This document shows, one piece after another, positions 20,769 to 50,669 of a DNA stretch of 64,000 nt; within the stretch, counting starts at the first letter, position 1, and each line of letters begins with the position of its first letter. Origin of the DNA: Caldisericia bacterium (GTDB taxonomy: Bacteria > Caldisericota > Caldisericia > UBA6126); NCBI GenBank assembly GCA_035363255.1, contig DAOSES010000006.1, forward strand, positions 25,544-89,543, given 5' to 3'. The translations under genes and the position numbers were made by a program. Below the pieces are notes generated by a model, which saw nothing but the letters and a program-made list of their open reading frames with translations, searched no databases and was not told the origin of the DNA.

Positions 20769-20840
20769 ACCCCAAAAGTATAGCACAGCATAGCGTAAAA
20801 AAGCACAAACAAACTATTGTTATAGATACATTGATTCATA

Positions 20841-30000: not shown

Positions 30001-32158
30001 GATCGAGTATTATCCCGATGGCTCCATGAAAAGCATCCAGGTATATACGCCCATTAAAATAGATCCAAGTCTGCCAGGATACAATATTATAAACATAGTT
30101 TGCCCTGAGGAATGCGGATTTAAAACTCCCGCAAAGGAAGGGTTTTATGAGTATAGGGTTTCCACCCAAAGGGAGACCAAAGAAATCAGCACAAGCTTTG
30201 AAATTGTTCAAAGCCAGATAGGTGTTCCGACAGGGGTGCCTCAGGTGATGGTCGATCCTCCGAGCGTGGATGCTCAAGCAGGATACAAGGTCAATTTTAA
30301 TGTAGGTCGAGGGGGATGGTTAAAGGCTCATCGTGATTTTATCCGTTTACGCTTTCCCAAAGGCACTCTTTGGGCTGTTTCTCCCGACAAATTCAAGCCC
30401 GAGTGGATCAAAATCAACGGCAAACCCTTATCCGCCAAAGCAAATCTGAGCTCTGAAACCCTTAGCCTGTTGGTGCCCATGGATATTGAAGATTCGGAGC
30501 GGGTGTTGGTGGAAATCAGCGAAGCTCTTGGCATAACAAACCCTCCCATAGCCGGGGAATATCAAGTGGAAGTAGCTACCTCAGCAGATGCCTGGGCAAA
30601 GTCTGAAGTCTACACGATTACAGGAGAATTGGAGGAAGACAGAATAAAGATAGTGAGTTTTATGATTGATCCTCACCCTCCCTATGCTCATGTCATTAGT
30701 GACTATCAAATTAGAATTCGTTTCAGCGATACCTTGCCCCCCAAAGAAGGCGATCAAGTTCAAATTGATTTGGGCCATCAGGGTTTATTTCTCACCAAAA
30801 CCATTTCAGATCCAAAAGATATGAAGGGGCTTTCTTTGCTTTTGAGGAAAATTCCAAATCCTGACCCTGGGGAATACACTTTGAAGGTTACCCTTCTGGA
30901 AGAGAGCGCAAGCTATACTTATCGAATATTGCATCCAATTCCTACGAGCCGTATTATTCTCGAAGGAGGGAAAAAAGGTAAGAACAATTGGTGGCTTGAG
31001 CCTCCGAAGATTTCATTCGAAGTATCCGATCCTGAGGCTAAAGTGGTTTTCTGGTGGAACGATGATAAGCCAAAGCCAACCAACGTTTCTTATCAAACGC
31101 AATATCCCTTGCCCCGCGTGTTGGATGGGGGTCAATTCAAAGCCAAGCTATGGTATTATGCTTACACCGAATATGGAGAAGAGGAACCCAAGTTTGAAGA
31201 AATCTGGGTGGATACGGTTTTGCCCGAAATAGTTATCGAACAACCTTCAAGCCAAAACGTACTTACTCGAGAGAAAGAGCTTGAAATCAGTGGGCGTGAC
31301 ACCTTAGTTAAAATCTCAATCTATGGAAAAGAGGTTTTAATATACGACACCCACCTTCTCAAGATTAATGGAGTGCTTGTGGATAGAGACCCAAAAGATG
31401 GGAGCTTCTCGCATCAGCTCCTTCTCGAAGAAGGCGCAAACCTGATCCTCATTGAAGCGGAAGACGAGGCTGGCAATCGATTGACCAGAGAATACAAGGT
31501 AGAGCTGGATACCACTCCTCCTGATATTCAGATAGAGTCTCCAAAAGCTATGCAAACGGTAGTCAACCGTGAAAAGAAAGTGCTCATCAAAGGGCGTTTG
31601 GACGACCCCGGAGCAGAGCTGTTAATTCAGGGAAAGATCGTTGATATAGCCGAGGATGGGCAATTTGAGCATGCTTATATTGTCTCAACAGGGCTCAACA
31701 CAATTTCATTAATGGCAAGCGATAAGGTGGGTAACATTCAGAAAAAAGAGCTTCAATTCTGGTTTGGACATACCATTCTCATGCAAATAGGCAACAAAGA
31801 AGCCAGCAACAACGGAATTAAACAGCAACTCCTACTGGCTCCCTTTATTCAAAATGGACGCACCCTGGTGCCTTTTCGATTTATCGGAGAAGAGCTGGGA
31901 GCTAGAATCGATTTTACGTTCCATCCAACAAGCAGATTGGTTCATACAGTGTCCTACCAACTGGAAGAAGACCTGATTGTACTCACCATCGGAAGCAAGA
32001 CTGCTCAGGTGAATGGAGAAGCTGTTGGTCTGGATGTTGCACCTCAGATTATCCAAGGCACTACCGTGGTGCCCATCCGCTTTATCGCAGAAAACCTGGG
32101 TTGTGAAGTGCTTTGGTCGGTACCCGAGCAAAGGATTAGTATCAGCTATCCTAGATAG
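27079..32158 (+). CDS. Giant secreted surface protein (about 1693 aa). It carries Ig-like repeats, a C-terminal [AED(E/D)AGN...LDTxPP] module, and two Cu-amine-oxidase-N-like anchoring domains.
   Basis: Signal peptide MKSFGKAVSRLLSWIIVALLSLGLALPFGPRPVKAQS. Three diverged repeats of about 120 aa (NFNVG(R/E)GGWLK...RLRFPK). C-terminal GRTLVPFRFI and GTTVVPIRFIAENLG motifs. Confidence 0.75.
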
Positions 32159-35572: not shown

Positions 35573-36667
35573 ATGAAGAATCTGAAGTTTCCAGCCCTTA
35601 GAATTGGGGATTTACTGGCATCTCTTCCCATTATACAGGGGGGCATGGGAGTTGGAATATCCTTATCGGGTCTGTCCTCTGCAGTTGCAAACCAAGGAGG
35701 TATTGGTGTTATTGCAGTTGCAGGAATTGGTATGGCTGAACCCGATTTTTTCAAAAACTATATGCAAGCAAATATTAGGGCTTTGCGTGAAGAAATACAA
35801 AAAGCAAGATCCATGACTAAAGGGATTATTGGTGTCAATATCATGGTTGCGCTTTCCAATTTTGGAGATTATGTAGCCACAGCCATACAGGAAGGGGTAG
35901 ATATCATTTTTGCAGGAGCAGGGCTACCTCTCAATCTTCCCTCCTACCTCAGTAACAATGTTAAAACCAAGCTTGTACCCATTATATCAAGCGCAAAAGC
36001 AGCTAACCTTCTCACACGCCGATGGCACGAGAAATACAACTATGTACCTGATGCACTTGTGGTGGAAGGTCCGAAGGCTGGAGGCCACCTTGGTTTTAAA
36101 CCTGAACAGATCACAGACCCTTCCTTCCAACTGGAATGTTTGCTTACTGAAGTGATTAATGAAACTCAACATCTTGAAAAAAAGTATGGCAAAGCTATAC
36201 CCGTTATCGCGGCAGGTGGAGTTTATACAGGAGCAGATATCCGTAAATACCTTGAGCTGGGTGCAGCTGGAGTTCAAATGGCAACGCGCTTTGTAGCTAC
36301 CGATGAATGTGATGCTGATGAGGCTTTCAAACAAACCTATCTAAGCTCTCAGGAAAAAGATATAACAATTATTAAGAGTCCAGTAGGTCTTCCTGGAAGG
36401 GCTATCAAGAACTCATTTTTGTGTGAAGTCGAAGCAGGAGAAAAAAAACCATTTTCTTGCCCATTTCACTGCATTATCACTTGTGATTACAAGAATGCTC
36501 CGTATTGCATAGCCTCTGCGCTCATCCATGCAAAAAAAGGAGATTTTTCTCAAGGCTTTGCTTTTTCTGGTTCCAATGCTTGGAGGTCTAAAAAAATTAT
36601 TCCTGTGAAAGAGCTGATAAAAAATCTTCGTACAGAATACGAGGATAGCGCTAAGGAAACAACATAA
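35573..36667 (+). CDS. Nitronate monooxygenase (2-nitropropane dioxygenase) family FMN oxidoreductase, possibly FabK-like enoyl-ACP reductase II.
   Basis: PIIQGGMGVGIS FMN-binding signature; TIM-barrel length. Start at ATG 35573 (RBS AAGGA). Confidence 0.75.
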   Translation: MKNLKFPALRIGDLLASLPIIQGGMGVGISLSGLSSAVANQGGIGVIAVAGIGMAEPDFFKNYMQANIRALREEIQKARSMTKGIIGVNIMVALSNFGDYVATAIQEGVDIIFAGAGLPLNLPSYLSNNVKTKLVPIISSAKAANLLTRRWHEKYNYVPDALVVEGPKAGGHLGFKPEQITDPSFQLECLLTEVINETQHLEKKYGKAIPVIAAGGVYTGADIRKYLELGAAGVQMATRFVATDECDADEAFKQTYLSSQEKDITIIKSPVGLPGRAIKNSFLCEVEAGEKKPFSCPFHCIITCDYKNAPYCIASALIHAKKGDFSQGFAFSGSNAWRSKKIIPVKELIKNLRTEYEDSAKETT

Positions 36668-36781
36668 AAATAACACTTAAGAGATACCTATCACGTTATA
36701 CCAAATTTATGATATTATATAGAGTAAAAATATGAAAATAAGCATAGTTGAGCTTGATATACAGCTCGGGAGGAAGAGTCA

Positions 36782-37549
36782 TTGAATCCGAAGAATTTAG
36801 TTGAAGCAAAAAAGGTGGTCAAAGGCCTCTTAAAGAACGAGCTTCGAGAAACCCATCTACGTTCAAACAATATCGATACCAATTCAGCAATTTTGCAATC
36901 AGATAAGATTTTTTGTCTGGTTCAATATATGGATAAAATCCATGACGACCTAAATCACATCTTGCCTGAAACAGCTACAAAGATAAATTGGAATAGCTAT
37001 GTACTTCTCGAAAAAACAGTCTTTGAATCCTACGCTGAACAGCTTGAAAATATAAAAAAAGAGCGTCCTGCCAAGGGGACGGTAGTTTTTGTATTACGAT
37101 CTGGCGAAGTCTATATGATTTCTCCCTATGCTCTGATGGATTTTTTAGATGAATACCCTCTATTGGTAAATATTGAAAAAGTGGAATACTTTTCTTTTCC
37201 CACAATTTTCCTCCAGGTGCCTGATGGAGCGCCTCGATCAGAAGAAGAGCTTGAAGCACAGCATCGTATTGCTTTAATCTCTCAAATCAACAGCCTTAAA
37301 CCCGCAGAAGTTGAAGATTACGAATTAGACGACGAAGACCTTGACGAGTATGAAAGAGATTTTTATGCCTCCTTTTTCTCTGATAGGTCCAGAAAAGGCT
37401 TTTCGCCTGATCTTAGATCCAAATATTCTGAGCTTGCTGACGATGATATTCGAAATATTACTATCCATCTCCTCTACGAGATGTCTAAAAATCTTACTGA
37501 GATCCGAAAAGAACTAAAAAGCATAAAAAAAATCATTAACGGTCGATAA
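36782..37549 (+). CDS. Hypothetical protein with an acidic C-terminal region.
   Basis: TTG start with strong RBS GGGAGGAAG. No recognised motifs. Confidence 0.5.
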   Translation: MNPKNLVEAKKVVKGLLKNELRETHLRSNNIDTNSAILQSDKIFCLVQYMDKIHDDLNHILPETATKINWNSYVLLEKTVFESYAEQLENIKKERPAKGTVVFVLRSGEVYMISPYALMDFLDEYPLLVNIEKVEYFSFPTIFLQVPDGAPRSEEELEAQHRIALISQINSLKPAEVEDYELDDEDLDEYERDFYASFFSDRSRKGFSPDLRSKYSELADDDIRNITIHLLYEMSKNLTEIRKELKSIKKIINGR

Positions 37550-37554
37550 GTGCA

Positions 37555-38136
37555 GTGTTCGTAATAGCAGGCTTAGGCAATCCAGGAGCTGAATACGATC
37601 TAACTCGTCACAATGTTGGATACATGGTGCTCGATCGGTTTGCTGCAATCTACAACACCCGAATTCGTACCGTTCAATGCCAGGCACTAACTGCCAATAT
37701 ACAGCCCAAAGAAGGCGAAGCTTTTTTACTTGCCAAACCCTACACCTTTATGAACTTATCTGGCGATTCGATCGCTCCATTGCTAAAAAAACTGCAGATA
37801 CCCTCAGAAAAATTGATAGTCATTCACGATGATTTAGATCTTGATTGTGGAATTGTTAGGATCAAGACGGATGGAAGTACAGCGGGGCACAAGGGTTTAA
37901 AGTCAATCGCTGAGCGACTAGGCACCACGAATTTTATCAGAATTCGAGTAGGAATAAGTCGTCCATATGAAAAAGAAGATGTAGTAGAGTATGTGCTTTC
38001 AAAGTTTCGTTCGGGCGAAAGAGCTTTGCTGGATGAAGCTCTGGACACTGCTTGCAAGATGGTACTGGACTATATGAACAAAGGTTTTGCCTATACAGCT
38101 AATAAATTTCATCGAAAAAACTCCACTGAAGTATGA
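37555..38136 (+). CDS. pth: Peptidyl-tRNA hydrolase.
   Basis: VIAGLGNPGAEYDLTRHNVGYMVLD signature; GTG start. Confidence 0.9.
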   Translation: MFVIAGLGNPGAEYDLTRHNVGYMVLDRFAAIYNTRIRTVQCQALTANIQPKEGEAFLLAKPYTFMNLSGDSIAPLLKKLQIPSEKLIVIHDDLDLDCGIVRIKTDGSTAGHKGLKSIAERLGTTNFIRIRVGISRPYEKEDVVEYVLSKFRSGERALLDEALDTACKMVLDYMNKGFAYTANKFHRKNSTEV

Positions 38137-41100
38137 ACTGGCCTTCATTTACTCGTCTTTTTCAAGCATATCCTCCCTTTTCTCTTGATCCTGCAATATT
38201 TGAAAAGGATCGATATCATTTCTCGATATATAATGCTGTTGGAGCTGCAGCTTCTCTTGCGGTAGCTGAAATTATATACAAAAATCCTGGAAAGCTACTG
38301 ATTACAGCCAAAAGTGAAACCCAGCTTGAGCATATTTTAGAAGACCTATACGCTCTTCTTGAACCCGAACAATCATCCCGTCTGGTGCTATTTCCTGACA
38401 CTGCTGTATTGCCCTACGAAAAAATCTCCCCTTCCATAGAGCAAATTGGGGAACAGATTCAGGTCTTAAACCTTTTACAGGAAGATCATGTTATTGTTCT
38501 TGCTCCTTATTATGCTTTATTCAATCCAGTATTAGACCCCATCGATCTTCAATCTCATGCTATCCACTTGAAGCTTGAACAGACCCTAAGAGTGGAGGAG
38601 CTCCTCACCACCCTCATTCCCTGGGGATATCATCATGAGCTGAGTGTTGAGCGAGTGGGTGATCTGAAAGTCAAAGGTGGGATTGTGGACATCTTTTCTC
38701 CCAGTGCAAAGTATCCGGTTCGAATTGAATGGGTAGGAAAGACAATATCAAGCATGCGCTTCTTTGATCCTATCACTCAGCTCAGTGTAGAAAAGATATC
38801 ACACTACAAGATTCTTCCTGTGACTCATGTGATAGCTAATGAAGAGCAATTTAAAAAAACCGCTCAAGCTATTCGACAATGGATGGGTCAAAAAAGACTC
38901 CCTATATCAGGACCTATTGTGGAAGATCTTGAAAAACTAGAACAGGGCATCTTGTTTTCTGGCATCGAACACTATCTCCCCTTTTTGCGCACAAGAGAGT
39001 GTACGTTGATTGATTATTTTGACGATTCAAGTCCTATTGTTTGGCTTCAAAAGGAAGAATTCTCTCATTCTATGGAGTGTTTAACCCAGGAAATTTCTGA
39101 AATCAGGTCGGTCGAGAAAGAAAAGAAAGAAATCCTACCCTTTCCATTTGAAGCGTTTATTGAAGAGAACAAACAAAAGTTGATACTAAAACCTCGCCAA
39201 TGGGAGCTTGAAGCTCTACCTTTAGCTGTTTCTACTTCAAGTCATTATGCCTTACCTGTCAGATATATGGACACCATCGTTCAGAAAGATTTAAAAACAA
39301 CTGTCGATCAGCATCTATCTCGTCAAGGTCACCTTATGATAGCCAGCAAGCAAAAGAAGCGAGTCTTGGAGATCTTGTCCAGCCTTGGAGTTGACTTGCT
39401 TAATCCTGATCTAATTATCCATGATGCCCACTTATCTAGAGGCTTTTCAGCTCCCGAGTTGAAAACAGCTCTCCTGACCGACCTGGAACTTTTTGGCTGG
39501 AAACGACCCCATAAAACACATAAACGTTTTAAGGAAGGTATCCCGATTAAGTCGGTGGACGACTTAAAACTTGGAGATATTTTGTCCCACTATTCCTATG
39601 GTATCGGTATTTATCGTGGCCTAACTGTAGTCAAAGACGCTGAAGGCAAGCAAAAAGAGTTTTTATTGATGGAATATGCCAAGGGTGATAAGCTATATAT
39701 CCCACCCGAGCGTATTCATATGGTGAACAAATATATTGGAGATCCCGAAAATACCCCCCTCAATTCGCTTGGGAGTGCCGATTGGGAAAGAGCAAGAAGC
39801 AAGGCAAAAAAAGGAGCAGAAGAGCTTGCGCAGGAGTTGTTAGAGCTTTATGCAAAAAGAGAAGTATCCAAGGGAATCCGGTTTGCAAGCGATACTCCAT
39901 GGCAAGAAGAAATGGAAGCACTTTTCCCCTACGAAGAAACCATTGATCAAATGCAGGCAATACATGATGTTAAACAGGATATGGAAGCTCCGCAGATCAT
40001 GGACAGGATAGTCACAGGTGATGTAGGATATGGCAAGACAGAAGTAGCTATTAGAGCGGCTTTCAAAGCTATCATGGATGGCTTCCAGGTGGCTATGGTA
40101 GTGCCAACCACCATTTTAGCCAATCAGCATTACGAGAATTTTAAAGAACGATATGCTCCTTATCCTATTAAAGTGGCTTGTCTGTCTCGACTAGTTTCGT
40201 CAAAAAAACAAAAAGAAATCCTGGCAGGGCTCGAAAAAGCTTCGGTAGAAATGGTGATTGGAACACATCGCATGTTTTCCAAGGATATAGCTTTCAAAAA
40301 TCTTGGTCTTCTTATCATCGATGAAGAGCACAAGTTTGGAGTTAAGCACAAAGAGCAAATCCGGAAAATCAAAGAAAATGTGGATGTTTTAACTTTATCG
40401 GCCACTCCCATTCCCCGCACTTTATCAATGAGTATGAGTGGGATCAAAGAGATATCACGTATTGATACTCCTCCCGAAGGACGTAAACCAGTAAAAACTT
40501 ATGTTATGCCATATGACGAAGAATTGCTACAACAAGCCATTCGCTTTGAGTTGGCAAGAAATGGTCAAGTATATTATGTTCACAACCGAATACAGGATAT
40601 TCTCAGAATACGAGATAATCTTTTAAAGATTCTCCCCGAAATCAAAATCGGTGTAGCCCATGGTCAAATGAAAGGGGACACTATTGATGGGGTGATTACT
40701 GATTTTTTAACAGGCAAGCTCAATGTATTGCTTTGCACCACCATCATCGAATCAGGCATCGATATAGCTACGGTTAATACTTTAATCGTAGATGACTCCG
40801 AGTTTCTTGGACTTGCCCAAATGTACCAACTCAGAGGAAGAGTGGGTAGATCTCATCGAAGAGCGTATGCTTATTTCTTTTATGACCCCAAACGAGCAAC
40901 CCAGTTTAAAGCGGAAGCCCGGCTTGATGCTATCCGAGAATATGTAGAATTAGGATCTGGACTCAAAATCGCCTTCAGAGATATGGAAATTCGAGGAGCA
41001 GGAAATTTTCTTGGACCTGAACAGCATGGTCACATTCGCTCAGTGGGATATCATATGTATATCCAGCTTTTAAAAGAAGCCATCGAGGATCTTCGCTTTA

Positions 41101-41549
41101 AGAAAGGCATTGGCCCCGAACCAATTGATCTGCCTGAGTTTCCTCTATCAGGGTATATCCCTGACTCCTTTATGAAGGATGAAGGAGAACGACTCGCAAT
41201 TTATCAAGAGTTGGTTACCATAAAAAAACGAGATCAACTTAACCGCTTAGTAAAAGATCTTCAAGATCAATATGGGGTTTTTCCCAGCGAAATGGAAGAG
41301 TTTGTTCATAATCTTGATTTAAGAATTCAAGCATACGAAAAAGGGCTGAGTTCAGTACAAATTGAAGACATCTTCATTCATTTCAACTTTGATTATCAGC
41401 ACCATCGTTTTAAAATGGAAGCAAAAAGTCTTTCGCAACTGGTTGCACAATTTGGTAACCATATCCGATTCAAACCAGAAGCAATCATGATCCGAAAAAG
41501 TAAAACCGATTTGATGCAAGTGATTGAGGGGGTTCTGAAATGTCTTTAA
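38133..41549 (+). CDS. mfd: Transcription-repair coupling factor Mfd.
   Basis: 1138 aa. Superfamily-2 helicase motifs (GDVGYGKTEVA, IIDEEHKFGV), TRCF/CarD-like domain. ATG overlaps the pth stop. Confidence 0.92.
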   Translation: MNWPSFTRLFQAYPPFSLDPAIFEKDRYHFSIYNAVGAAASLAVAEIIYKNPGKLLITAKSETQLEHILEDLYALLEPEQSSRLVLFPDTAVLPYEKISPSIEQIGEQIQVLNLLQEDHVIVLAPYYALFNPVLDPIDLQSHAIHLKLEQTLRVEELLTTLIPWGYHHELSVERVGDLKVKGGIVDIFSPSAKYPVRIEWVGKTISSMRFFDPITQLSVEKISHYKILPVTHVIANEEQFKKTAQAIRQWMGQKRLPISGPIVEDLEKLEQGILFSGIEHYLPFLRTRECTLIDYFDDSSPIVWLQKEEFSHSMECLTQEISEIRSVEKEKKEILPFPFEAFIEENKQKLILKPRQWELEALPLAVSTSSHYALPVRYMDTIVQKDLKTTVDQHLSRQGHLMIASKQKKRVLEILSSLGVDLLNPDLIIHDAHLSRGFSAPELKTALLTDLELFGWKRPHKTHKRFKEGIPIKSVDDLKLGDILSHYSYGIGIYRGLTVVKDAEGKQKEFLLMEYAKGDKLYIPPERIHMVNKYIGDPENTPLNSLGSADWERARSKAKKGAEELAQELLELYAKREVSKGIRFASDTPWQEEMEALFPYEETIDQMQAIHDVKQDMEAPQIMDRIVTGDVGYGKTEVAIRAAFKAIMDGFQVAMVVPTTILANQHYENFKERYAPYPIKVACLSRLVSSKKQKEILAGLEKASVEMVIGTHRMFSKDIAFKNLGLLIIDEEHKFGVKHKEQIRKIKENVDVLTLSATPIPRTLSMSMSGIKEISRIDTPPEGRKPVKTYVMPYDEELLQQAIRFELARNGQVYYVHNRIQDILRIRDNLLKILPEIKIGVAHGQMKGDTIDGVITDFLTGKLNVLLCTTIIESGIDIATVNTLIVDDSEFLGLAQMYQLRGRVGRSHRRAYAYFFYDPKRATQFKAEARLDAIREYVELGSGLKIAFRDMEIRGAGNFLGPEQHGHIRSVGYHMYIQLLKEAIEDLRFKKGIGPEPIDLPEFPLSGYIPDSFMKDEGERLAIYQELVTIKKRDQLNRLVKDLQDQYGVFPSEMEEFVHNLDLRIQAYEKGLSSVQIEDIFIHFNFDYQHHRFKMEAKSLSQLVAQFGNHIRFKPEAIMIRKSKTDLMQVIEGVLKCL

Positions 41550-42745
41550 CCATGAACTGGATCATGGATGAGGTCCTGGCAATTGGTCCTTATCCTACGC
41601 AGAGTGATATTGAGTATCTCCATCAGCAGGGATTTAGAATGCTTATACGTTTTACAGAAGAAACGAAAAGTACCTATCATCTTCCTGAAGAATGGTTTAA
41701 AGGATTGCATTTGCCAATAGCGGATTATGGCTTGCCAACAGTTGAGCAGGTGTCTCAGCTTGTAAGACATGTCCACTTTTATCAGCAACAGGGTGTAAAA
41801 GTCTATATGCATTGTAGAGCTGGTTATGGGAGGGCAGGCACTACAGCCGCTCTTGTTTTGGTTTCTTACGGGGAAGCTCCACAGCGTGCAATCCGGATAG
41901 TTAGATCAAGACGGCCAGGTACCATCGAAACCGAGGCGCAACAGGCCATGATTCTTAGTTCGGATGAATGGATGAAAGCTATTATGAATGCTGATGACTT
42001 GCAATGGTTCAAGTCATGCAAAATGATTGAAGTTTTGCGAGAAAAATGTCCCTGGGACCAGGAGCAAACCCATGAAACACTGGTGGAGTCCTTAATGGAT
42101 GAGGCTTATGAAGTAGTGGAAGCAATTAGAAGCAAAGATATGCAACAACTCAAAGAGGAGTTGGGGGATTTGATGATACAGCCCTTGATACAAGCCCAGA
42201 TTGCAAAAGAAGAGGGTAATTTTACCATCAACGATGCGATGGATGTGATGTTAGAGAAGCTTAAACGAAGACATCCACATGTCTTTGGATCCATTGTTCA
42301 GCAAACTCCCAAGGGAGTGGTGCATCAGTGGTCAGACATCAAAAAAACGGAAAATGGAGAAAAAAAGACCTATCCCTCGCCTTTAAAAGAGATCATGGAT
42401 ATATCGTTGGAAGCGTCTGCTGATGGATTTGAATGGGAAAAAGCAGAAGAGGTATTAGACAAAATTGGTGAAGAATTGGACGAAACAAGACATGCCTTAA
42501 GCGACGGTGATCAACGATCAGTAGAAAATGAGCTGGGAGACTTGCTTTTTGCAGTTTTTAATGCCATCCGTTACTTAAAAATCGATCCCATCAAAGTCAT
42601 GGAAAGAGGGAGAAGGAAGTTTGAGATTCGTTATCGTACTGCTCAAAAAATGATGCAGGAAGATGGCTTAGACTCGCGTAAACTTTCCTCCCTTGAGCTT
42701 AATAATTATTGGGAAAAAGCTAAAAAGTTTAATTCTCCTGTTTAA
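41540..42745 (+). CDS. Fusion protein: N-terminal dual-specificity/Tyr protein phosphatase domain plus C-terminal MazG nucleoside triphosphate pyrophosphohydrolase.
   Basis: CX5R P-loop VYMHCRAGYGRAGT in the first 150 aa or so. Two MazG EExx(E/D) helices (EELGDLMIQ; ELGDLLFAV) in the C-terminal 250 aa. Confidence 0.75.
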   Translation: MSLTMNWIMDEVLAIGPYPTQSDIEYLHQQGFRMLIRFTEETKSTYHLPEEWFKGLHLPIADYGLPTVEQVSQLVRHVHFYQQQGVKVYMHCRAGYGRAGTTAALVLVSYGEAPQRAIRIVRSRRPGTIETEAQQAMILSSDEWMKAIMNADDLQWFKSCKMIEVLREKCPWDQEQTHETLVESLMDEAYEVVEAIRSKDMQQLKEELGDLMIQPLIQAQIAKEEGNFTINDAMDVMLEKLKRRHPHVFGSIVQQTPKGVVHQWSDIKKTENGEKKTYPSPLKEIMDISLEASADGFEWEKAEEVLDKIGEELDETRHALSDGDQRSVENELGDLLFAVFNAIRYLKIDPIKVMERGRRKFEIRYRTAQKMMQEDGLDSRKLSSLELNNYWEKAKKFNSPV

Positions 42746-43343
42746 ATTGCATACGAAAGACATAGACATGTTGGTTTTTCATCAGTTTGTTCCAGGCGAT
42801 GGGATCTTGCAGAAAGACAGCTTCCTCAATTGCTTCCGGGGAGGATGGGTTGCGAGTTAACACAAAGAGCATCATGGCCTGATTTAATACTACTGCTTGC
42901 TCGGGACTGCTTTTCCATCCGGTAGCTCCACTGGGATCTGCGAGGTTGATGTTGCGAGTCATGCGATGTTTGCCAGTGATAGAGACAGTCCAAAGCTCAT
43001 CAGTTGAGCCAGGGATGGAAGCAATTTGAGTTAAAAGGAGTTTTGTGCTGCGTTTTCGGTCTTTCATGCTGAAACCGCTATTAAACTGTTTTTCAATAAA
43101 TTTGCCGTTGTAGTAATAATCCACCCAAAATTCAGCCCATTGAATATCTTTGGATAAATCCATTCGAAAAGCAGCCTGTCTGCTAACACCTATGTCAAGC
43201 AAAAGGGAAGCTTCGTTGGCATTAAGCTGAATGGGTACAAGTTTGTTGGTGTCTGCTTTGGAAGCACAGTGTAGATTGTTCAAGGCAAAGAAAGCAATAA
43301 AAAGTAAGGATAGGGAAAGTTGTACTAATTTAGTTCGTTTCAT
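42729..43343 (-). CDS. Hypothetical lipoprotein.
   Basis: Signal peptide plus lipobox LLFIAFFALNNLHC. 3' end overlaps the mazG fusion by 17 nt. Confidence 0.5.
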   Translation of the reverse strand: MKRTKLVQLSLSLLFIAFFALNNLHCASKADTNKLVPIQLNANEASLLLDIGVSRQAAFRMDLSKDIQWAEFWVDYYYNGKFIEKQFNSGFSMKDRKRSTKLLLTQIASIPGSTDELWTVSITGKHRMTRNINLADPSGATGWKSSPEQAVVLNQAMMLFVLTRNPSSPEAIEEAVFLQDPIAWNKLMKNQHVYVFRMQFKQEN

Positions 43344-43492
43344 TCAAATATACCTCTCCTATGCTTCGTATTTTAAAAGGTATTATACCTTAGCCGAAAA
43401 AAAAGCATAGCTTATTCAGCTCAACAAACTTTTTCAAGAGCAAGTTTCCTGTTATAATTAACGTTTAGCTTGAATAGCAGAAGGAGCATTCA

Positions 43493-45106
43493 ATGAAAAA
43501 ATGGGTGATATATCTGTTACCGTTGCTTTTAGTGATCTGTTCAATAGGCGCGCTGTTTTTTACAAAACACCGGATTGAGCAATTTGTGGCAATGTCGCGA
43601 CAGATGCCAATACCTATGGATGTAGAGGATTTGGTTAAAGAGGAATCATTTAATCGGCCCTTACCTATCGATCCAATATACCCAAAAGTAGCTCTCTTGC
43701 TATTGAATGGGATGCCAGAAGAAGTATATGAACTAGTCAAACAAGCCCAAGCAGAGCAAAATGATACTCAGATGAAGTTTTCAAGCACCTTTCTTGCCTG
43801 GGAAACTATGCATGATCTTGACTTTAACTATCAAACCCTTCAAGCTGGGTTAAATCCTCTCCGTGCAGATGCTTTTTTGAAAATTGCATCCAGAGAGTCA
43901 GACGCTTTGCTCAAGATAGTTCAGGATTATGGATTCAAAGCCTACACTACCGACGTTCTTCAAGAGCTATCCTATCCTGAAAAGGATTGGAACGATGCTT
44001 CTTTGATTGTATTAAATGCCAGCAACGACTCCTGGTCTTCAGCTTCTTTTAATGCTCAAGAGATGGCCGACCAAATCGTCGAATTGATCCAGAAAACCGA
44101 TCCAGGAACCTTGTTAGTTATAAGCTCTCTGATTCCAAACCCTCGATTACCTATCTCTTTTAAGCCTCGATATCATTACACAGTTCCCCTAGCCTTTATT
44201 GGCTCCAAAGTTGATCCATCCATTGAACTTCCACTGATGAATGTTCAAGAACTTACTGCCACTATATCCTATGCCCTTGGTTTGCCCTCACCTACTGGTT
44301 GTATGGCAGTGCCATGCTTTACCCTTTTTCCTCAAGAGGATAAGGAGCTATTAAATCGTATGCTTTTCTCAGGACACAACTATCTTAGCAATGCCTTATA
44401 TGGTCTGAGCGACTTTGGTCTCGATGAAGCCATTTCAACCGGTTACTTTTTTCAATATTCTGACAAATTGGAATATGCCAAAAGCACTGACTACAAGCAA
44501 ATGTTGTCTGCAATCCAGCAAATGGATCAAGATTACCGTGAGTTTCTTGACAACGAAAACCAAAAAGCCAATATGATTCCAACGATTGTATCAGTTATTT
44601 TGTTGGCACTGCTCTTGATTGCCTGGTTGTTACTATTGCCCTATTTTTATCGCGGGATCTTGTTTGGTTTGCTTTGGATTGCCTTATGGCTTGTATTTTT
44701 CCATGGAGTATTTCGTTTGCCTATTCAATTGCCCTCCTTACACCAATTTTCCTGGGTTTGGATCCTTTCAGCTCATCTTTGGCCTTTGATTTTATCCACT
44801 CTGGTGCTGGGAACGGGCATGACGCTTATTGCTGGTTTTTGGCTCGACTTACAGCTCAAGGATCTTTTTGTAGATTTTCAGTCTGCGGCTGGTACTTTCC
44901 TTGTTTTTCTCCTTGCGCAGGGTGCCTTTTTTTCAATTCGTGATGGTTTTGTAATTGGCCGAATCATTCCAGCTTTTTTTACTCAAGCCTTAATGTTTCG
45001 AAATCTTGCTCATATCATCTTGCTTCCCTTATTCTTTGGTTTAATGCTTTTATTAGCATCCTCCATCTATGGGATATCTTTAAAAATAGCCCAAAAAAGA
45101 GGGTGA
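43493..45106 (+). CDS. Hypothetical membrane protein: N-terminal TM, extracytoplasmic domain of about 330 aa, C-terminal bundle of about 6 TM helices.
   Basis: Strong RBS AAGGAG. Hydrophobicity pattern; no known catalytic motif recognised. Confidence 0.55.
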   Translation: MKKWVIYLLPLLLVICSIGALFFTKHRIEQFVAMSRQMPIPMDVEDLVKEESFNRPLPIDPIYPKVALLLLNGMPEEVYELVKQAQAEQNDTQMKFSSTFLAWETMHDLDFNYQTLQAGLNPLRADAFLKIASRESDALLKIVQDYGFKAYTTDVLQELSYPEKDWNDASLIVLNASNDSWSSASFNAQEMADQIVELIQKTDPGTLLVISSLIPNPRLPISFKPRYHYTVPLAFIGSKVDPSIELPLMNVQELTATISYALGLPSPTGCMAVPCFTLFPQEDKELLNRMLFSGHNYLSNALYGLSDFGLDEAISTGYFFQYSDKLEYAKSTDYKQMLSAIQQMDQDYREFLDNENQKANMIPTIVSVILLALLLIAWLLLLPYFYRGILFGLLWIALWLVFFHGVFRLPIQLPSLHQFSWVWILSAHLWPLILSTLVLGTGMTLIAGFWLDLQLKDLFVDFQSAAGTFLVFLLAQGAFFSIRDGFVIGRIIPAFFTQALMFRNLAHIILLPLFFGLMLLLASSIYGISLKIAQKRG

Positions 45107-45119
45107 ATCGGAGGTCAAA

Positions 45120-48100
45120 ATGCTTAAACGCCTTATCATTGCTGTTCTGATCAGTCTGATGATGATGGCATGGGCTTTTCCCTTTGAGATCCATACTAGC
45201 AATGCTCGAGATTTGCGAATGGACTTCAGGACTGATCCTGAACGTTTTGTGCTTGAAGATTCTTATCTTCATCTTTATGTTACCTGCAACGATGCATCCT
45301 GGCTCACCATCGAACTACTCATGGGTCAACAAACGATATTATGGCAAGAGCATATCGAAGTATCAGCTCAAGTGGAAAAATACCTTCAAATTCCAGTAGT
45401 TTATCCTTTGCTTGAAGATTTTGAAGTTCGTATCCTTGCACAAGCTCAAAACAGCACTTCCAAAGCTCAAAATCAGCGAAAATTTGTTATTCAAAGAAAA
45501 CAGCAAGGTTCTTTAAGCCTCCAGGGAAGAATCACACAGTGTTCTCCATTTCAACCTTTGGGTTTGGAAGGTGCATTGATTGAAATTATCAGTGGCCCGT
45601 CTGCTGGAAAAGAACTGACTGAAGATGAGGGCTATTTTGTTTTTAAACAGCTTCCTCCTGGTACCTACAAGGTGCGAGTAAGTCATCCCTGCTCATCTGA
45701 TGCTCTCGAAAAGATAATATTTCTTGATGAAAAAACTTCTTTCCAGGAATGGTGCCTTCAAACCTACCGGATACCCGACATGGATTTATGGCTCAACAAG
45801 CCTTCAGGGAGTGTTTTTGAAGTGGGCGAAACCATGACGGTTTTTTTACGTTCCTCTGTTTCAATGAAAGCTGATGTAATGATTACAGATTCTCGTGAGA
45901 CCAAACCACTATTTCGGGGCTTACACCTTCAACAAGACCAGATACAACGGTTTTTTTGGCGACCTACACCAGCACAACGCTTGGGCAAGGTCGAGTTGGC
46001 CTTGGTTCCTGCTGAAGAACAGCTCTGCGGTGAGGCTCGTTACCAATTTCAACTCATATCCAACATGCAAACTGGAGTCATCGGAGGTAGAGTACGATTG
46101 GGTGGCAAGGCGATGCAAGGAGTTAAAGTATATTTACCCTTGCAATCTACAGCCCCAGCTTTTACTGACGAACGAGGCTTTTTTGAAATACCCGATGTTC
46201 CTGCTGGAATCCACGTTGTTCGTGTAATGACCAGCGAAGACATGTATGCAGACAAGCATGGGGTTGAAGTTAGCAAAGGCAAAATCACTGAAGGAGTGGA
46301 AATTGATCTTCCTAATGAAAACATTAATTTTGTATTGGATCCACCTCAAATCTTTGCCACCACCCATGAACGCAGGGAAAAACAAGTCCCATTATTAATA
46401 TCACTCGACGAAGGAAGCATTAACAATCTTCAAGTTAAAATAGTGGAAGGACCCTCTGAGTTATCTGTTTTCCCCTCTTCTCTGCCTTCCTTATTGCGCG
46501 AGAAACGACGTGTTTGGCTCGTAATACCTGAAAACTGCCCTGTAGGAGATCATTCTGTCACAGTGCGTATTGGCAACAACCTTCACTCGGTTGAATGGAA
46601 GGGACTTATCCAGGTCACTGGTCTGTCTCGAGGCACTTTTGATGCTTCGATTGCACCACTCAAGAAGACAGTCATACAGGGTGAAGAAGCTATTTTTGAG
46701 GTGAAAGTTGAGAAATTCACCAATTTTAATGCCAAAGTATCAATCAAAGCTGAAACGCTTCCTCCTTATTCCGAATTTCAAGCAGAGGAAGCCAAAACAG
46801 CCCCCGCAAGTATTCAGTTTAAAGTACGAACCAGTTTAAACACTCCCCCAGCACAATATAGTGTATGGATCAAAGCTGAAGGAGATCAGCTCAGTTCCTG
46901 GTATTCCTGCCAACTTGAAGTGTTAAAAACTGGAGGCACTCTTGCAAGTGTACCTGATAGCACCTGGAATCCCATCGTTTCCGCAGGGCAACACGTGCAA
47001 TCCACTATCTCCTTATGGAGCCCCAAAGGAGAAACACGCCAGGTTCGCATCCAATTGGCATATGGACCCACCTGGCTCAGATTTGAAAATCGCAACATAG
47101 GAACTGTGGGTGAGAGTCCTATCGAGGTTCCGTTGATAGTTCAACCCGATAATCAAGTGGTTTCTGGAGCATATAACTATTCAATAAATCTGATCTATGG
47201 AGAGCGAAGTGAGGGTTTCTTCAAACTGGAAGGTCAGATCTATGTCCAACAAAATGAACTCGATACCCCCACCAACCTAAGAGCAAGATATATCAGAGAA
47301 AAAGGTAGCATTACTCTTACCTGGGGTCCCCCTGCAGAAGCGGCAGATCAGGTCGTAGGATACAACTTGTATCGATCATTACGATATCCCACCCTTGAGC
47401 ATGCTGTGCCTCTCAACTACAGCTTGATCACAGATCGTACCTACGTAGATGATGACTTTTTAGTAGGAAAATCTTACTGGTATGTAGTTCGAGCAGTAAG
47501 AAGCGATGGTAGTTTGAGTCCTCGATCCAACACAGCCGAAATTCGGATCAATCCTTCTTTTGTTTTTTCAATGAAATCTTCTTTCAGCAAAGGGGAAAAA
47601 GCTGTCTGTTTTGTGGGCGAACAAATAGGACTCACCTTAAAACCTTCTCATTCAGCTTCAGTGGAAGTTTGGATCAAGCAGAATGAAAGTTCCGTTTTAG
47701 TGTTGAGCCAGTCCTTAATTGGCAAAGCTCTGCAAGATTTATACTTTATTACTCCAGACCTGGAGGGAGAAGCGCTCATAGAAGTGAAAGCAGTAAAAGA
47801 GGATGGACAGCAGTCAATTTCCCAGCATTCCATTAACATCAAAAAAAATAGGAAGGGAAACATACAAGTCAAAGGAAAGCTCTTTAATTCCCTCTATCAA
47901 AGACCCATATCTCATGCGCGTATTTGGGTGTGGGATGGATTTAGCAGAGCTGAAAGTTACACGGATGCAGAGGGTCATTTTGTCTTAAAGGATCTGGAAG
48001 AAGGAATGTATCGATGGATGGTGGAGTATGCAGGCACCAAAGCTCTCACTGAAGCTCGATATGTCAGCGCAAATCAAAATGAACCATTGGAACTTGATCT

Positions 48101-50669
48101 TCCCTTATCATGGACTCCCCCCTTTTATGCCTGGCAGAAACCTGGCACTGAAAAGGATTCTTACCATCCAGGAGCTTCAATAGAGCTTGCAGTTTTTCCT
48201 TCGATGGATACTCAGCTTAGCATTTCAATTGAAACACAGGGTAAAGCGCGAAGATTGCTGATCGACAAAAATTTCACTGCATCAGTGATGCAAGCAGAAA
48301 CAATCCTCATCCCAGAAGATCTCCCCCCTGGAACTGCCTATTGCTTGATTGAATCAAGCCAACCTCAGGGTTTGGTAAGGATCCCTTTGCTCGTTCAAGA
48401 ACAAAGACATGAATGGCAGGGACAAGTGGTGGATCCTTTTGGAAATTTGCTGATGGGGGTTGACATTAAAGATGGGGAAGGAAAAGAGAGCATAGCAAAA
48501 ACCAATGAATGGGGTTATTTTGCTTTAGACCAAGCAGATTCAGCAATCAGCTTTCATCAACAAGCCTATGCTCCAGTATTTCTAAAAAAATCAGAAAATA
48601 CCTCTATGCAAGTGGTCCAATTAAGTTATGAGCTGGAGGATTCGGATATTACAATGCAAGATATTACCGTCTCAGATGATTTTACAGAGTTTGAATGGAT
48701 GATTCCATTGCGATCGGGATGGATTCCAGCAGTGGAGTTTTCCATATATTCAGGCATCAAAGAAGAAGTTGGGGAGGGTGAGGAAGCTCCAGAAGAAAAG
48801 CCATGGAAAAGCTGGCCAAAAAGAGACTTGTTTCCTGGCCATTGTTATCGTTTGCATATTGATGGAGTCCCTCTATCTTCAGACACGCGCCTGGAATGGA
48901 AACACTCTGATCAACGACATTCGGTTCCGATTGTTAAAGGCTTGCCCTATCGATGGCATGTAGAAAGTTTACCGCCTATACCCATAGTGGATGCTGGCAA
49001 AGAGCTTGTGCTTGAGTTGGACTTATATACTCATGGATATTACAAGAAGATTGTATATCTTGAAGTGGCAAGTGAAAATCCTGAAATCAAGGCTTGGCTG
49101 CTTCCTGAGCGTTTTGTATCAGGACAATTGCTAAGACTTATGCTTGACATACCTAGCCATGTTCCTGAAGGTACTTATCTGTTTTACCTCAGCATGAAAC
49201 TTGACGATCACAAAGATATCCGACCCTTACGAGTATCGATTCGTCAACCGCGAGCAGTTGAAACCAAGAACTTGAGCTGGCAGCCCACCTTATATGAAAA
49301 TCAAGCTATTGAGCAAAGGTTTTTCTTTAAAGATGGAATAGAAGAGCCTCAAAAATTCCCTGCACTTCCTGATGGAGTCAAGGTTCAATATTTGCCCTCT
49401 GAGCTACTTGTTCAGCTACAAAGCCCGAAACCTATTCCTAGCTTTTCATTGCCAGTGCACCATGCTGGAAATAAGCTTGCAGAAATTCAAGTTAATCCGC
49501 TGGTGCTTCCAAAAAAACAAATCACTGTGCCTGAGCTAACCTCCACTAGCGAAAGAGAAGGCGTGATGCTTCATTTGAATCCGCTTAGTGCAGGAACTTA
49601 TTATCAAATCTTTCGATCTCAAGCCCAAGAGAGCAAGATACCTCAACATTTTGATTGGCGCAGCACAGCAAATTATCTTGATACGAGTGTCAAAGAGCGA
49701 GAAACTTATCATTATCGTGCTTTAGTCACCGACGGACAACTTGAAGCGGTTTGGACTGAAACAACCACTCTCATTTACCGGCAGTTGTTTATTGTCATCC
49801 ATATTAATGATGGGCTTATCAGCAATCGAAAACAAATTGACTTGAAGGGGTCTGTGTCCATTGGTGCACGTTTATTCATCAACGACGAGTCCATCACCCT
49901 CGGTAGAAATGGAGTATTTGAAAAAACTTATTCCCTCAAGGAAGGACCCAATCGCTTTATTTTCAGAGCTGAGGATGATGCTGGGAATGTACTTGAAGAG
50001 CATCGTACGATATATCTTGATACTGAGCCTCCTCAGATTGAGTTGATTTCTCCCGATCAAAACATTACCCACACCCTTCAAAACAACCTGCAAATGAAAG
50101 TAAGATGTGAAGCAAAGGCTTATTTGGCTGTTAACGGAAACAAGCTTGATCTTGATGAGTCAGGGGTAGCCACATTTTCAACAAGCTTAGCTTTTGGTAG
50201 AAATGATTTTCAGTGGTTTGCTACCGACAGGGCGGGAAACCAAACCAAGCTAAACACCTGGGTATATAGATATAAGGCACAAACCCTGCTCAAGCTTCAA
50301 ATTGCCAATCGAACAGCATATATTGGCGAAAAAGCTATAATTCTTGATGCTCCTCCCCAGATTGTGAGTGGTAGAACCCTGGTTCCTTTAAGATTTATAG
50401 CTGAAGCTATGGGGAGCAAAGTGGAGTGGATTGCTTCGAGCAAGGAGATAATTCTTCGTTTGGGCGATAAAACCATCAAACTTCAAGTCGGGCTGAAAGA
50501 AGCCTTGATAAATAATCAAGATAAAGTTATCCTTGATGTTCCTCCAATGATAATGGAAGGACGAACTATGGTTCCCTTGCGTTTTGTTGCGGAGGTCTTG
50601 AATAGTAAGGTTGACTGGTTGCCTCAAACCAAAGAAATACATGTATTGGTGTGGGTTTGGGAAGCATAA
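45120..50669 (+). CDS. Giant secreted surface protein (1849 aa). It has carboxypeptidase-regulatory-like/Cna-B-like beta-sandwich domains, FN3, a C-terminal [AEDDAGN...LDTEPP] module, and two Cu-amine-oxidase-N-like anchoring domains.
   Basis: Signal peptide LIIAVLISLMMMAWA. Motifs GYFVFKQLPPGTYKVRV and GFFEIPDVPAGIHVVRV. C-terminal GRTLVPLRFIAEAMG and GRTMVPLRFVAEVLN. Confidence 0.75.
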   Translation: MLKRLIIAVLISLMMMAWAFPFEIHTSNARDLRMDFRTDPERFVLEDSYLHLYVTCNDASWLTIELLMGQQTILWQEHIEVSAQVEKYLQIPVVYPLLEDFEVRILAQAQNSTSKAQNQRKFVIQRKQQGSLSLQGRITQCSPFQPLGLEGALIEIISGPSAGKELTEDEGYFVFKQLPPGTYKVRVSHPCSSDALEKIIFLDEKTSFQEWCLQTYRIPDMDLWLNKPSGSVFEVGETMTVFLRSSVSMKADVMITDSRETKPLFRGLHLQQDQIQRFFWRPTPAQRLGKVELALVPAEEQLCGEARYQFQLISNMQTGVIGGRVRLGGKAMQGVKVYLPLQSTAPAFTDERGFFEIPDVPAGIHVVRVMTSEDMYADKHGVEVSKGKITEGVEIDLPNENINFVLDPPQIFATTHERREKQVPLLISLDEGSINNLQVKIVEGPSELSVFPSSLPSLLREKRRVWLVIPENCPVGDHSVTVRIGNNLHSVEWKGLIQVTGLSRGTFDASIAPLKKTVIQGEEAIFEVKVEKFTNFNAKVSIKAETLPPYSEFQAEEAKTAPASIQFKVRTSLNTPPAQYSVWIKAEGDQLSSWYSCQLEVLKTGGTLASVPDSTWNPIVSAGQHVQSTISLWSPKGETRQVRIQLAYGPTWLRFENRNIGTVGESPIEVPLIVQPDNQVVSGAYNYSINLIYGERSEGFFKLEGQIYVQQNELDTPTNLRARYIREKGSITLTWGPPAEAADQVVGYNLYRSLRYPTLEHAVPLNYSLITDRTYVDDDFLVGKSYWYVVRAVRSDGSLSPRSNTAEIRINPSFVFSMKSSFSKGEKAVCFVGEQIGLTLKPSHSASVEVWIKQNESSVLVLSQSLIGKALQDLYFITPDLEGEALIEVKAVKEDGQQSISQHSINIKKNRKGNIQVKGKLFNSLYQRPISHARIWVWDGFSRAESYTDAEGHFVLKDLEEGMYRWMVEYAGTKALTEARYVSANQNEPLELDLPLSWTPPFYAWQKPGTEKDSYHPGASIELAVFPSMDTQLSISIETQGKARRLLIDKNFTASVMQAETILIPEDLPPGTAYCLIESSQPQGLVRIPLLVQEQRHEWQGQVVDPFGNLLMGVDIKDGEGKESIAKTNEWGYFALDQADSAISFHQQAYAPVFLKKSENTSMQVVQLSYELEDSDITMQDITVSDDFTEFEWMIPLRSGWIPAVEFSIYSGIKEEVGEGEEAPEEKPWKSWPKRDLFPGHCYRLHIDGVPLSSDTRLEWKHSDQRHSVPIVKGLPYRWHVESLPPIPIVDAGKELVLELDLYTHGYYKKIVYLEVASENPEIKAWLLPERFVSGQLLRLMLDIPSHVPEGTYLFYLSMKLDDHKDIRPLRVSIRQPRAVETKNLSWQPTLYENQAIEQRFFFKDGIEEPQKFPALPDGVKVQYLPSELLVQLQSPKPIPSFSLPVHHAGNKLAEIQVNPLVLPKKQITVPELTSTSEREGVMLHLNPLSAGTYYQIFRSQAQESKIPQHFDWRSTANYLDTSVKERETYHYRALVTDGQLEAVWTETTTLIYRQLFIVIHINDGLISNRKQIDLKGSVSIGARLFINDESITLGRNGVFEKTYSLKEGPNRFIFRAEDDAGNVLEEHRTIYLDTEPPQIELISPDQNITHTLQNNLQMKVRCEAKAYLAVNGNKLDLDESGVATFSTSLAFGRNDFQWFATDRAGNQTKLNTWVYRYKAQTLLKLQIANRTAYIGEKAIILDAPPQIVSGRTLVPLRFIAEAMGSKVEWIASSKEIILRLGDKTIKLQVGLKEALINNQDKVILDVPPMIMEGRTMVPLRFVAEVLNSKVDWLPQTKEIHVLVWVWEA

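Follow-up and report, generated by a model that had tools for sequence, protein, structure and literature searches.

Why would a small cysteine-based phosphatase be joined to a nucleotide pyrophosphohydrolase, and why in a gene that starts inside the end of mfd? The question is raised by a locus in a 64,000-nucleotide stretch of DNA from a Caldisericia bacterium (contig DAOSES010000006.1 of assembly GCA_035363255.1), the whole of which is hereafter called the window. There, a single 401-aa open reading frame (ORF) with no internal stops (41540..42745, +), delimited by ORF analysis, domain matches and an AlphaFold2 (AF2) model, encodes an N-terminal protein tyrosine phosphatase (PTP) domain of the dual-specificity phosphatase (DSP) kind followed by a tandem MazG module. 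An earlier note on this DNA, made from the letters alone, had called both domains and placed the gene in a conserved pth-mfd-mazG neighbourhood. The domain calls proved correct, a domain search having confirmed the PTP-type domain and the tandem MazG by Pfam, NCBIfam, and PDB sequence and fold matches, and the neighbourhood is indeed conserved, in Caldisericota as well as in remoter fusion lineages. As far as residues and folds can tell, it is nearly certain that the protein has this architecture and that both of its domains are catalytically competent. The domains themselves are familiar, and their combination seems to be undescribed, restricted to one phylum and evolutionarily informative. 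As a conserved fusion, it can be read as a 'Rosetta stone' for the cooperation of a small Cys-phosphatase with MazG in at least one bacterial phylum, and it offers a compact, testable case for the roles of small bacterial and archaeal PTPs and of the extra N-terminal domains of mfd-linked MazG/YabN proteins.

Two putatively catalytic domains in one polypeptide

The N-terminal domain (aa 5-140; 41552..41959, +) was assigned to the Cys-based PTP/DSP domains of the VHZ/archaeal-PTP type from Pfam, PDB sequence matches, Foldseek and dN/dS. It is recognized by PTP-SAK (PF22784; E=2.6e-20, 73 bits, aa 5-137) and, over aa 5-140, by Tc-R-P (1.9e-15), DSPc (7.8e-12) and PTP-NADK (PF22741; 6.4e-10, 39 bits), and its sequence matches in the PDB include 25xa (1e-21), ShufPTP (1.5e-18), Tk-PTP (7e-17) and VHZ (4e-10). 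In Foldseek, the target TM was 0.80 for VHZ (4erc, with an rmsd of 2.4 Å), 0.83 for ShufPTP and 0.82 for Tk-PTP, the range over VHZ, ShufPTP, Tk-PTP and SsoPTP being 0.74-0.83, with rmsd values of 2.3-2.8 Å for 4erc, 9e9m and 5z5a. This PTP fold disposes of the concern that the CX5R region might belong to a non-catalytic rhodanese-like fold: no rhodanese family was found among the Pfam matches or among the 50 best fold matches listed, all N-terminal matches being to PTP/DSP. A search with the PTP domain alone, whose sensitivity was limited by its word-index method, returned six weak standalone DSPs.

The general-acid Asp62 (nt 41723-41725), some 30 residues ahead of the nucleophilic Cys, lies in a D-loop, PIADYGLP (41714..41737, +), that was located by alignment with Tk-PTP, ShufPTP and VHZ and corresponds to PIPDF in the first two and to IPDF (D65) in VHZ. 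The P-loop HCRAGYGRAGT (residues 91-101; 41810..41842, +), defined from an alignment of 27 fusion sequences, carries the nucleophile Cys92 and Arg98, and the RPGTIETEAQ motif (41912..41941, +), with Glu130 and Gln134, is near-invariant in the same alignment, is common to VHZ and Tk-PTP, and aligns with RPGSIETYEQ and RPGAVETQEQ. In residue-level alignments with Tk-PTP, ShufPTP and VHZ, D62 falls on the general acid, C92 on the nucleophile, R98 on the P-loop Arg and E130 on the Glu of the IET motif, with the PDB match to 4erc as an independent anchor for VHZ. C92, G95 and R98 are invariant across the 27 aligned proteins, at identities down to 32%, and the Caldisericia core keeps Asp62, His91, Cys92, Gly95, Arg98, Thr101, Glu130 and Gln134 down to ~43% identity. 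The small PTPs Tk-PTP (5z5a), SsoPTP (2i6i), ShufPTP (9e9l), VHZ/DUSP23 (4erc) and 25xa share with this domain a ~150-aa fold, the D-loop Asp, an HCxxGxGR(S/A/T)GT P-loop and an RPGxIETxxQ motif, and the P-loop of 25xa, a 'DSP family protein', is near-identical (HCRAGYGRTGT). However, all of them are standalone single-domain proteins, none being joined to a nucleotide hydrolase. Conserved residues and fold together suggest that the PTP half is equipped for two-step catalysis through a Cys-thiophosphate.

The C-terminal half, an orthologue of the mfd-linked tandem MazG (d)NTP pyrophosphohydrolases, matches MazG (PF03819) in two stretches (E=4.4e-35; 120.2 bits versus a cut-off of 22), the NCBIfam NTP pyrophosphohydrolase model PRK09562 over aa 161-396 (226.9 bits versus 208) and TIGR00444 mazG (205 bits versus 148.3). 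MazG half 1 (aa 161-250; 42020..42289, +), delimited by a Pfam MazG stretch at 176-249 and by alignment with E. coli MazG (3cra), contains the acidic metal-binding cluster D187-E188-x-x-E191 together with E207 and D210 (nt 42098-42121 and 42155-42169, +), of which E188, E191, E207 and D210 are invariant. Half 2 (aa 290-396; 42407..42727, +), with the second MazG stretch and a PRA-PH match at 300-355, contains the second metal-binding cluster, E311-E312-x-x-E315 together with E331 and D334 (nt 42470-42484 and 42530-42541, +), all five invariant, and its acidic helices align with EEIDE and EEEMGDLLFA of E. coli MazG. These nine residues are invariant both in the 27-sequence alignment and in 60/60 fusion-type proteins. 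E. coli MazG (3cra/3crc) has both acidic clusters and the fold in common with aa 161-396, to which it aligns end to end (E=2e-40), and it is the top Foldseek match (3cra_A, E=1.7e-10), but with a modest target TM of 0.56 and an rmsd of 6.9 Å over 257 columns. The E. coli protein is not known to carry an extra N-terminal domain and sits in the relA-mazEF-mazG region, not behind mfd.

Between the two halves runs a connector (aa 141-160; 41960..42019, +) for which the AF2 model gives helices at 132-148 and 151-169. The model, computed from the family alignment (pLDDT 88.6, pTM 0.71), contains helices alone from residue 132 on and has a pLDDT of 92-96 across the domain junction, which is gap-free in all homologues. 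The domains are thus confidently predicted to be linked by a continuous, rigid helical connector. That the gene is a frameshift or assembly artefact joining two separate genes can be given practically no credence: homologous single ORFs of 394-413 aa are found on many independent assemblies, with dozens of independent NCBI, JGI, ENA and Logan contigs among them, and their junction keeps the conserved helix. Moreover, both halves are under purifying selection: dN/dS is 0.128 over PTP and 0.086 over MazG in the comparison with cluster P0002 (dS 0.3-0.6), to which the estimate was restricted, remoter pairs being saturated. The PTP half diverges faster, at 37-67% identity versus 50-71% for the MazG half.

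A rare architecture confined to a narrow lineage

A homologue search of 5.8 billion protein clusters returned 27 clusters with the ~400-aa architecture, at identities from 100% to 32% and from NCBI, JGI, ENA and Logan assemblies. The window protein is a 100% match to public cluster P0001, and the 90% cluster to which it belongs contains HOI24493.1, whose public name is simply 'nucleoside triphosphate pyrophosphohydrolase [Caldisericia bacterium]'. The full-length fusion is present in 12 GTDB species representatives, ten of them labelled Caldisericota, Caldisericia or Caldiserica. An Actinomycetota label is carried by JAQVHC010000132.1 (L003) and a Calditrichota label by DAIMET010000019.1 (L007), which are respectively 99.1% and 95.4% identical in DNA to the Caldisericia contigs L004 and L005; both labels probably stem from mistakes of binning or labelling in public metagenome-assembled genomes, and all 12 representatives are effectively Caldisericota. 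The window species itself lies outside the GTDB representatives, since the top identity of its protein to them is 69%. An exhaustive hidden Markov model search of 1.84 billion representatives found ~7 fusion representatives positive for PTP and another four whose N-terminus was not recognised. PTP-MazG is a rare architecture, limited to a narrow lineage; the label Caldisericum exile was absent among the matches of one GTDB contig scan, made with MazG motifs. Among the 150 best matches of the exhaustive search, the sole eukaryotic ones came from abalone (Haliotis asinina / H. rubra; P0234, P0319 and P0320), and are proteins of 500-736 aa with tandem bacterial-type PTP-SAK-like domains, four of them in P0234 (603 aa).

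The rhodanese-phosphatase superfamily survey by Burroughs & Aravind (2023) reportedly defined the Pfam families PTP-SAK, PTP-NADK and Tc-R-P. A literature search that excluded this family-defining survey, in which a prior mention is possible, found no description of a fusion between MazG and a dual-specificity or tyrosine phosphatase. Two Pfam families, PF22741 ('DSP-PTPase fused to NAD+ kinase') and PF22784 ('PTP-SAK'), are precedents for bacterial DSP-type domains on nucleotide-metabolising enzymes, although the partners differ. Current annotation does not reflect the fusion, as P0003, P0004, P0019, P0148 and others are named 'tetrapyrrole methylase family protein / MazG family protein' in JGI/IMG despite having no PF00590; the methylase names are wrong for the PTP-MazG architecture, and NCBI, which gives these proteins the bare name 'nucleoside triphosphate pyrophosphohydrolase', ignores the PTP domain.

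The methylase names recall Bacillus-type YabN (NF052436), which has in common with the window protein the tandem MazG at its C-terminus (model positions 233-486) and, in Bacillota, the general pth-mfd neighbourhood. Its N-terminus, however, is a TP_methylase. The window protein, with a score of 217.7 where the model demands 525 and with no match to PF00590, lacks a methylase domain and is therefore no YabN. The earlier note had gone further and proposed that the PTP domain replaced the methylase. Relatives of ~485 aa combining PF00590 and PF03819 do exist in other phyla, which bears out one part of this idea, but a replacement as such receives no backing from a neighbour-joining (NJ) tree of the MazG part, in which deep nodes do not resolve and outgroups interleave. 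Other N-terminal partners found on tandem MazG are a full TP_methylase (~485 aa), half a TP_methylase (~375-400 aa) and NUDIX (P0205). The NUDIX-MazG protein P0205 and the half-TP_methylase-MazG proteins P0169, P0203 and P0276 have the same layout as the window protein, i.e. an N-terminal alpha/beta module and then the tandem MazG, whereas the fold and chemistry of these partners are unlike those of the PTP domain.

Repeated loss of the phosphatase site on a constant MazG core

How indispensable phosphatase catalysis is to the fusion can be gauged from its relatives, more of which (~375-405 aa, one labelled Coprothermobacterota) were recovered with a profile from divergent forms. Sixty fusion-type proteins comprise 29 with an intact PTP site, 12 with CX5R only and 19 without Cys and Arg, the MazG motifs being constant in 60/60. 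The intact group, which consists of the Caldisericia core plus P0149, P0151 and P0153, has Asp, or in two cases Glu, as the general acid in 29/29. In the CX5R-only forms, the IET..Q motif is lost, the D-loop is altered and the P-loop reads HCYAGLERSPTM or HCKDGLLRSP. The degenerate N-termini are true homologues of the PTP domain, to which they align with an hhalign probability of 99.2% (E=3.9e-19, 140 columns). In a model of the degenerate P0155 (pLDDT 72), the best N-terminal fold matches are PTPs, but not significant ones. In the NJ tree of the MazG part, the deep nodes of which are unreliable, the Caldisericia core is uniformly intact while, in the other two clusters, dead forms branch among CX5R-only ones, and therefore the PTP site would have been lost repeatedly. 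By sequence comparison, the fusion predates the Caldisericia core clade, and the PTP active site decayed several times in the wider clade.

Because the MazG motifs stay constant while the PTP site is often lost, the MazG half can be viewed as the constant enzyme and the PTP fold as an accessory module whose catalysis seems to be retained in some lineages only; with 19/60 proteins having lost Cys and Arg and MazG untouched, PTP catalysis is no obligatory partner of MazG catalysis. At the same time, the retention of dead copies and the rigid junction suggest that the PTP domain is a physically integrated accessory module of MazG and no independent passenger. We consider it reasonably probable that the two domains are integrated, be it physically or functionally. 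The passage from intact to half-decayed to dead PTP on a constant MazG core amounts to a natural comparative experiment on the origin of pseudo-enzymes. Many MazG proteins of ~375-400 aa (P0169, P0203, P0241 and P0276) have the first half of TP_methylase only (~125/212 positions), and N-terminal partners of tandem MazG may often be truncated or non-catalytic, paralleling the pseudo-phosphatase series.

These data could also be taken to mean that the PTP fold is mainly non-catalytic in vivo even where its site is intact, acting as a structural or oligomerisation element, as an allosteric site that binds a phospho-ligand or product, or as a redox switch that tunes MazG via a low-pKa Cys92, the intact Caldisericia site then serving for binding or sensing. 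Pseudo-phosphatase orthologues are common, CX5R-only intermediates exist and all are homologous to the intact domain; likewise, the constancy of the MazG motifs and the faster evolution of the PTP half would fit such a role. Nevertheless, the Caldisericia core keeps the full catalytic apparatus, not Cys alone, to ~43% identity, and this pattern, with a dN/dS of 0.13, is typical of a working enzyme. A mainly regulatory or structural role is rather unlikely.

Conservation of the pth-mfd-fusion locus

The fusion gene, whose ATG is at 41540, overlaps the mfd stop codon TAA (41547-41549). A Shine-Dalgarno-like GAGGGGG (41526..41532, +), noted by sequence inspection, lies 7 nt 5' of this ATG and within the mfd 3' end, and Met1 is identical throughout the alignment of 27 fusion homologues. 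Upstream, mfd (38133..41549, +), which encodes the transcription-repair coupling factor with its UvrB_inter, CarD_TRCF_RID, DEAD, Helicase_C and TRCF Pfam domains, has a 4-nt overlap at its start with pth (37555..38136, +), the gene for peptidyl-tRNA hydrolase (Pept_tRNA_hydro, 7.7e-62). Directly 5' of pth is an acidic 255-aa ORF (36782..37549, +) with no Pfam or PADLOC match, which is probably the first gene of the same cluster. It occupies the slot of ribosomal protein L25 in related non-Caldisericia loci and has a counterpart 5' of pth in L004 (48% identity). On the other side, a convergent 204-aa ORF overlaps the 3' end of the fusion gene, which, given this and the tight upstream packing, is the last gene of a dense + strand cluster. 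Gene overlap and packing make co-transcription with pth and mfd likely, as well as translational coupling to mfd. A promoter/terminator scan of 36400-43600 was uninformative on operon boundaries, the counts being the same as the shuffled expectation. A defence-system reading of the locus was dropped, since the PADLOC library gave no match for the fusion or its unannotated neighbours.

The order pth-mfd-fusion is found in 12/12 genome loci, the fusion gene starting within the end of mfd, and remoter fusion lineages have (glmU-prs-L25-)pth-mfd-fusion, in which the mfd stop and fusion start overlap or abut. By comparison, in six Bacillota-labelled loci the MazG domain follows pth-mfd at a distance of ~3.3 kb, with other genes between mfd and yabN, and in Bacteroidota loci mfd and MazG are unlinked. 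In the P0153 lineage (23 members of identical length), the fusion is split into two overlapping ORFs, at a locus without mfd: in L089, a 278-aa ORF (142-978) holds PTP and MazG half 1 and a 128-aa ORF (948-1334) holds MazG half 2. This form may reflect either a true split or a frameshift that has been conserved; in L089 the pair adjoins RNase HII. In M. tuberculosis, MazG (Rv1021) is likewise encoded directly behind mfd, in the Rv1019-mfd-mazG operon, but has no PTP domain and another architecture, its PDB entry 7yh5 matching aa 159-249 of the window protein only. Mycobacterial mfd and mazG are co-transcribed (10.1101/2020.02.10.941963).

What the phosphatase half might act on

The MazG core would hydrolyse (non-canonical) (d)NTPs in a Mg-dependent manner to (d)NMP and PPi. 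Mycobacterial MazG is a housecleaning enzyme against oxidised dNTPs that clears 5-OH-dCTP (PMC3855555), and by analogy with this mfd-linked enzyme, the MazG half of the fusion probably sanitises the nucleotide pool. In the Caldisericia lineage, the PTP half would remove a terminal monoester phosphate via a Cys92 thiophosphate intermediate, with Asp62 as the general acid.

The earlier note had envisaged that a triphosphate or (p)ppGpp-like substrate is processed sequentially by the two domains. In a reading of this kind, the PTP half would attack phosphoanhydrides directly, be it NTP, NDP, (p)ppGpp or PPi from the MazG reaction. There are PTP-fold enzymes that hydrolyse 5'-triphosphates or inositol pyrophosphates, such as BVP, PIR1/DUSP11 and Siw14/PFA-DSPs, and PFA-DSP1 did appear as a weak fold match, to a degenerate homologue only. 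However, PTP-fold RNA triphosphatases and pyrophosphatases are usually without the general-acid Asp and have basic P-loops, whereas Asp62 is conserved here and P-loop positions 93 and 96 vary, with no consistent basic character. Nor is there a sequence match to such families: no PTP of the RNA-triphosphatase type (BVP/PIR1), PFA-DSP/Siw14 type or phosphoinositide type was found among 59 PDB sequence matches (E<=0.01). Joint processing of a triphosphate or (p)ppGpp is further weakened by the ordinary, VHZ/Tk-PTP-like character of the domain and by the PTP-dead state of 19/60 orthologues, and an attack on phosphoanhydrides is highly improbable. Since the general-acid Asp is conserved, the substrate would rather be a phosphomonoester with a poor leaving group than a phosphoanhydride, which points to a class that includes protein pTyr/pSer/pThr and sugar or nucleoside phosphates. 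Members of the rhodanese-phosphatase superfamily are described as acting on sugar or sugar-alcohol phosphates in addition to proteins (PMC9503650).

Within this class, a protein substrate is one candidate. The PTP half might be a conventional protein phosphatase (for pTyr, possibly pSer/pThr) with a non-nucleotide substrate or a pathway partner such as Mfd, RNA polymerase, Era or MazG itself, the fusion providing co-regulation or targeting. By sequence and by fold it comes closest to small PTPs of the protein type (25xa, ShufPTP, Tk-PTP, VHZ/DUSP23, PRLs and SsoPTP), it retains the general-acid Asp and the IET..Q motif as those enzymes do, and its PDB sequence matches (E<=0.01) include no PTP of the RNA-triphosphatase or phosphoinositide type. 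Yet an independent enzyme, once dead, would be expected to be deleted, and it is kept on MazG in 19/60 proteins; the rigid helical connector sits as badly with independence, and no protein kinase gene was found among the annotated window proteins. A protein phosphatase is a somewhat doubtful candidate, although ahead of the mainly regulatory or structural role discussed above.

Our leading assignment for the PTP substrate, itself tentative, is a nucleotide-derived monoester: the NMP/dNMP product of MazG or a 3'/5'-phosphorylated nucleotide, not the triphosphate itself, so that the PTP step would turn clean-up into a two-step irreversible process. The other partners found on the same tandem MazG, NUDIX and TP_methylase, are nucleotide-type modules, which we count in its favour. 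Several observations weigh against it. The PTP domain bears no nucleotide-specific mark, its conserved residues being the generic ones of the family, and its closest characterised relatives (Tk-PTP, SsoPTP and VHZ) have been assayed as protein or aryl-phosphate phosphatases. In addition, PTP catalysis has been lost in many orthologues, in which MazG functions without it, and P0153, unlinked to mfd, indicates that the arrangement is not rigidly bound to mfd. Taken as a whole, a housecleaning MazG with an integrated PTP that acts on a nucleotide-derived phosphomonoester is the explanation we favour, with a confidence that falls a little short of even.

A bolder version can be formulated, in which the VHZ-type PTP is a nucleotide phosphomonoesterase working in tandem with MazG: a damaged (d)NTP would be converted to NMP and PPi and the NMP to nucleoside and Pi, which would block re-phosphorylation, translational coupling would keep the enzyme at a fixed ratio to Mfd, and the pseudo-phosphatases would be product-binding relics. 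We regard this complete scheme as unlikely. If true, it would reveal a new substrate class for small VHZ/archaeal-type PTPs and a new, irreversible form of nucleotide-pool sanitation tied to transcription-coupled repair.

Other observations in the window

Rfam and tRNA scans of the window gave zero matches. About 11 kb from the fusion, a SpoIIIAA-like AAA ATPase, a 'PTPase' module (Pfam PF25516) and an R3H nucleic-acid-binding domain are united in one 536-aa protein (54163-55773, +). It provides a second phosphatase-labelled module, unrelated to the first, and a distant relative has it close to the fusion locus as well (L081, 15549-17036). A 981-aa protein (17841-20786, -) fuses two glycosyltransferases, one of the GT4 and one of the WecG/TagA type, to a polysaccharide pyruvyl transferase, and its gene lies within the only GC-rich stretch of the window (0.49 versus ~0.40). 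Finally, three very large predicted surface proteins with copper-amine-oxidase N-terminal-like domains at their ends are encoded at 3-1250, 27026-32158 and 45120-50669 (+), two of them 1710 and 1849 aa long and one cut by the window edge. The 1849-aa protein and the 537-aa membrane protein that precedes it are syntenic with the fusion locus in L001/L002 and are found inverted upstream of pth in L005-L012.

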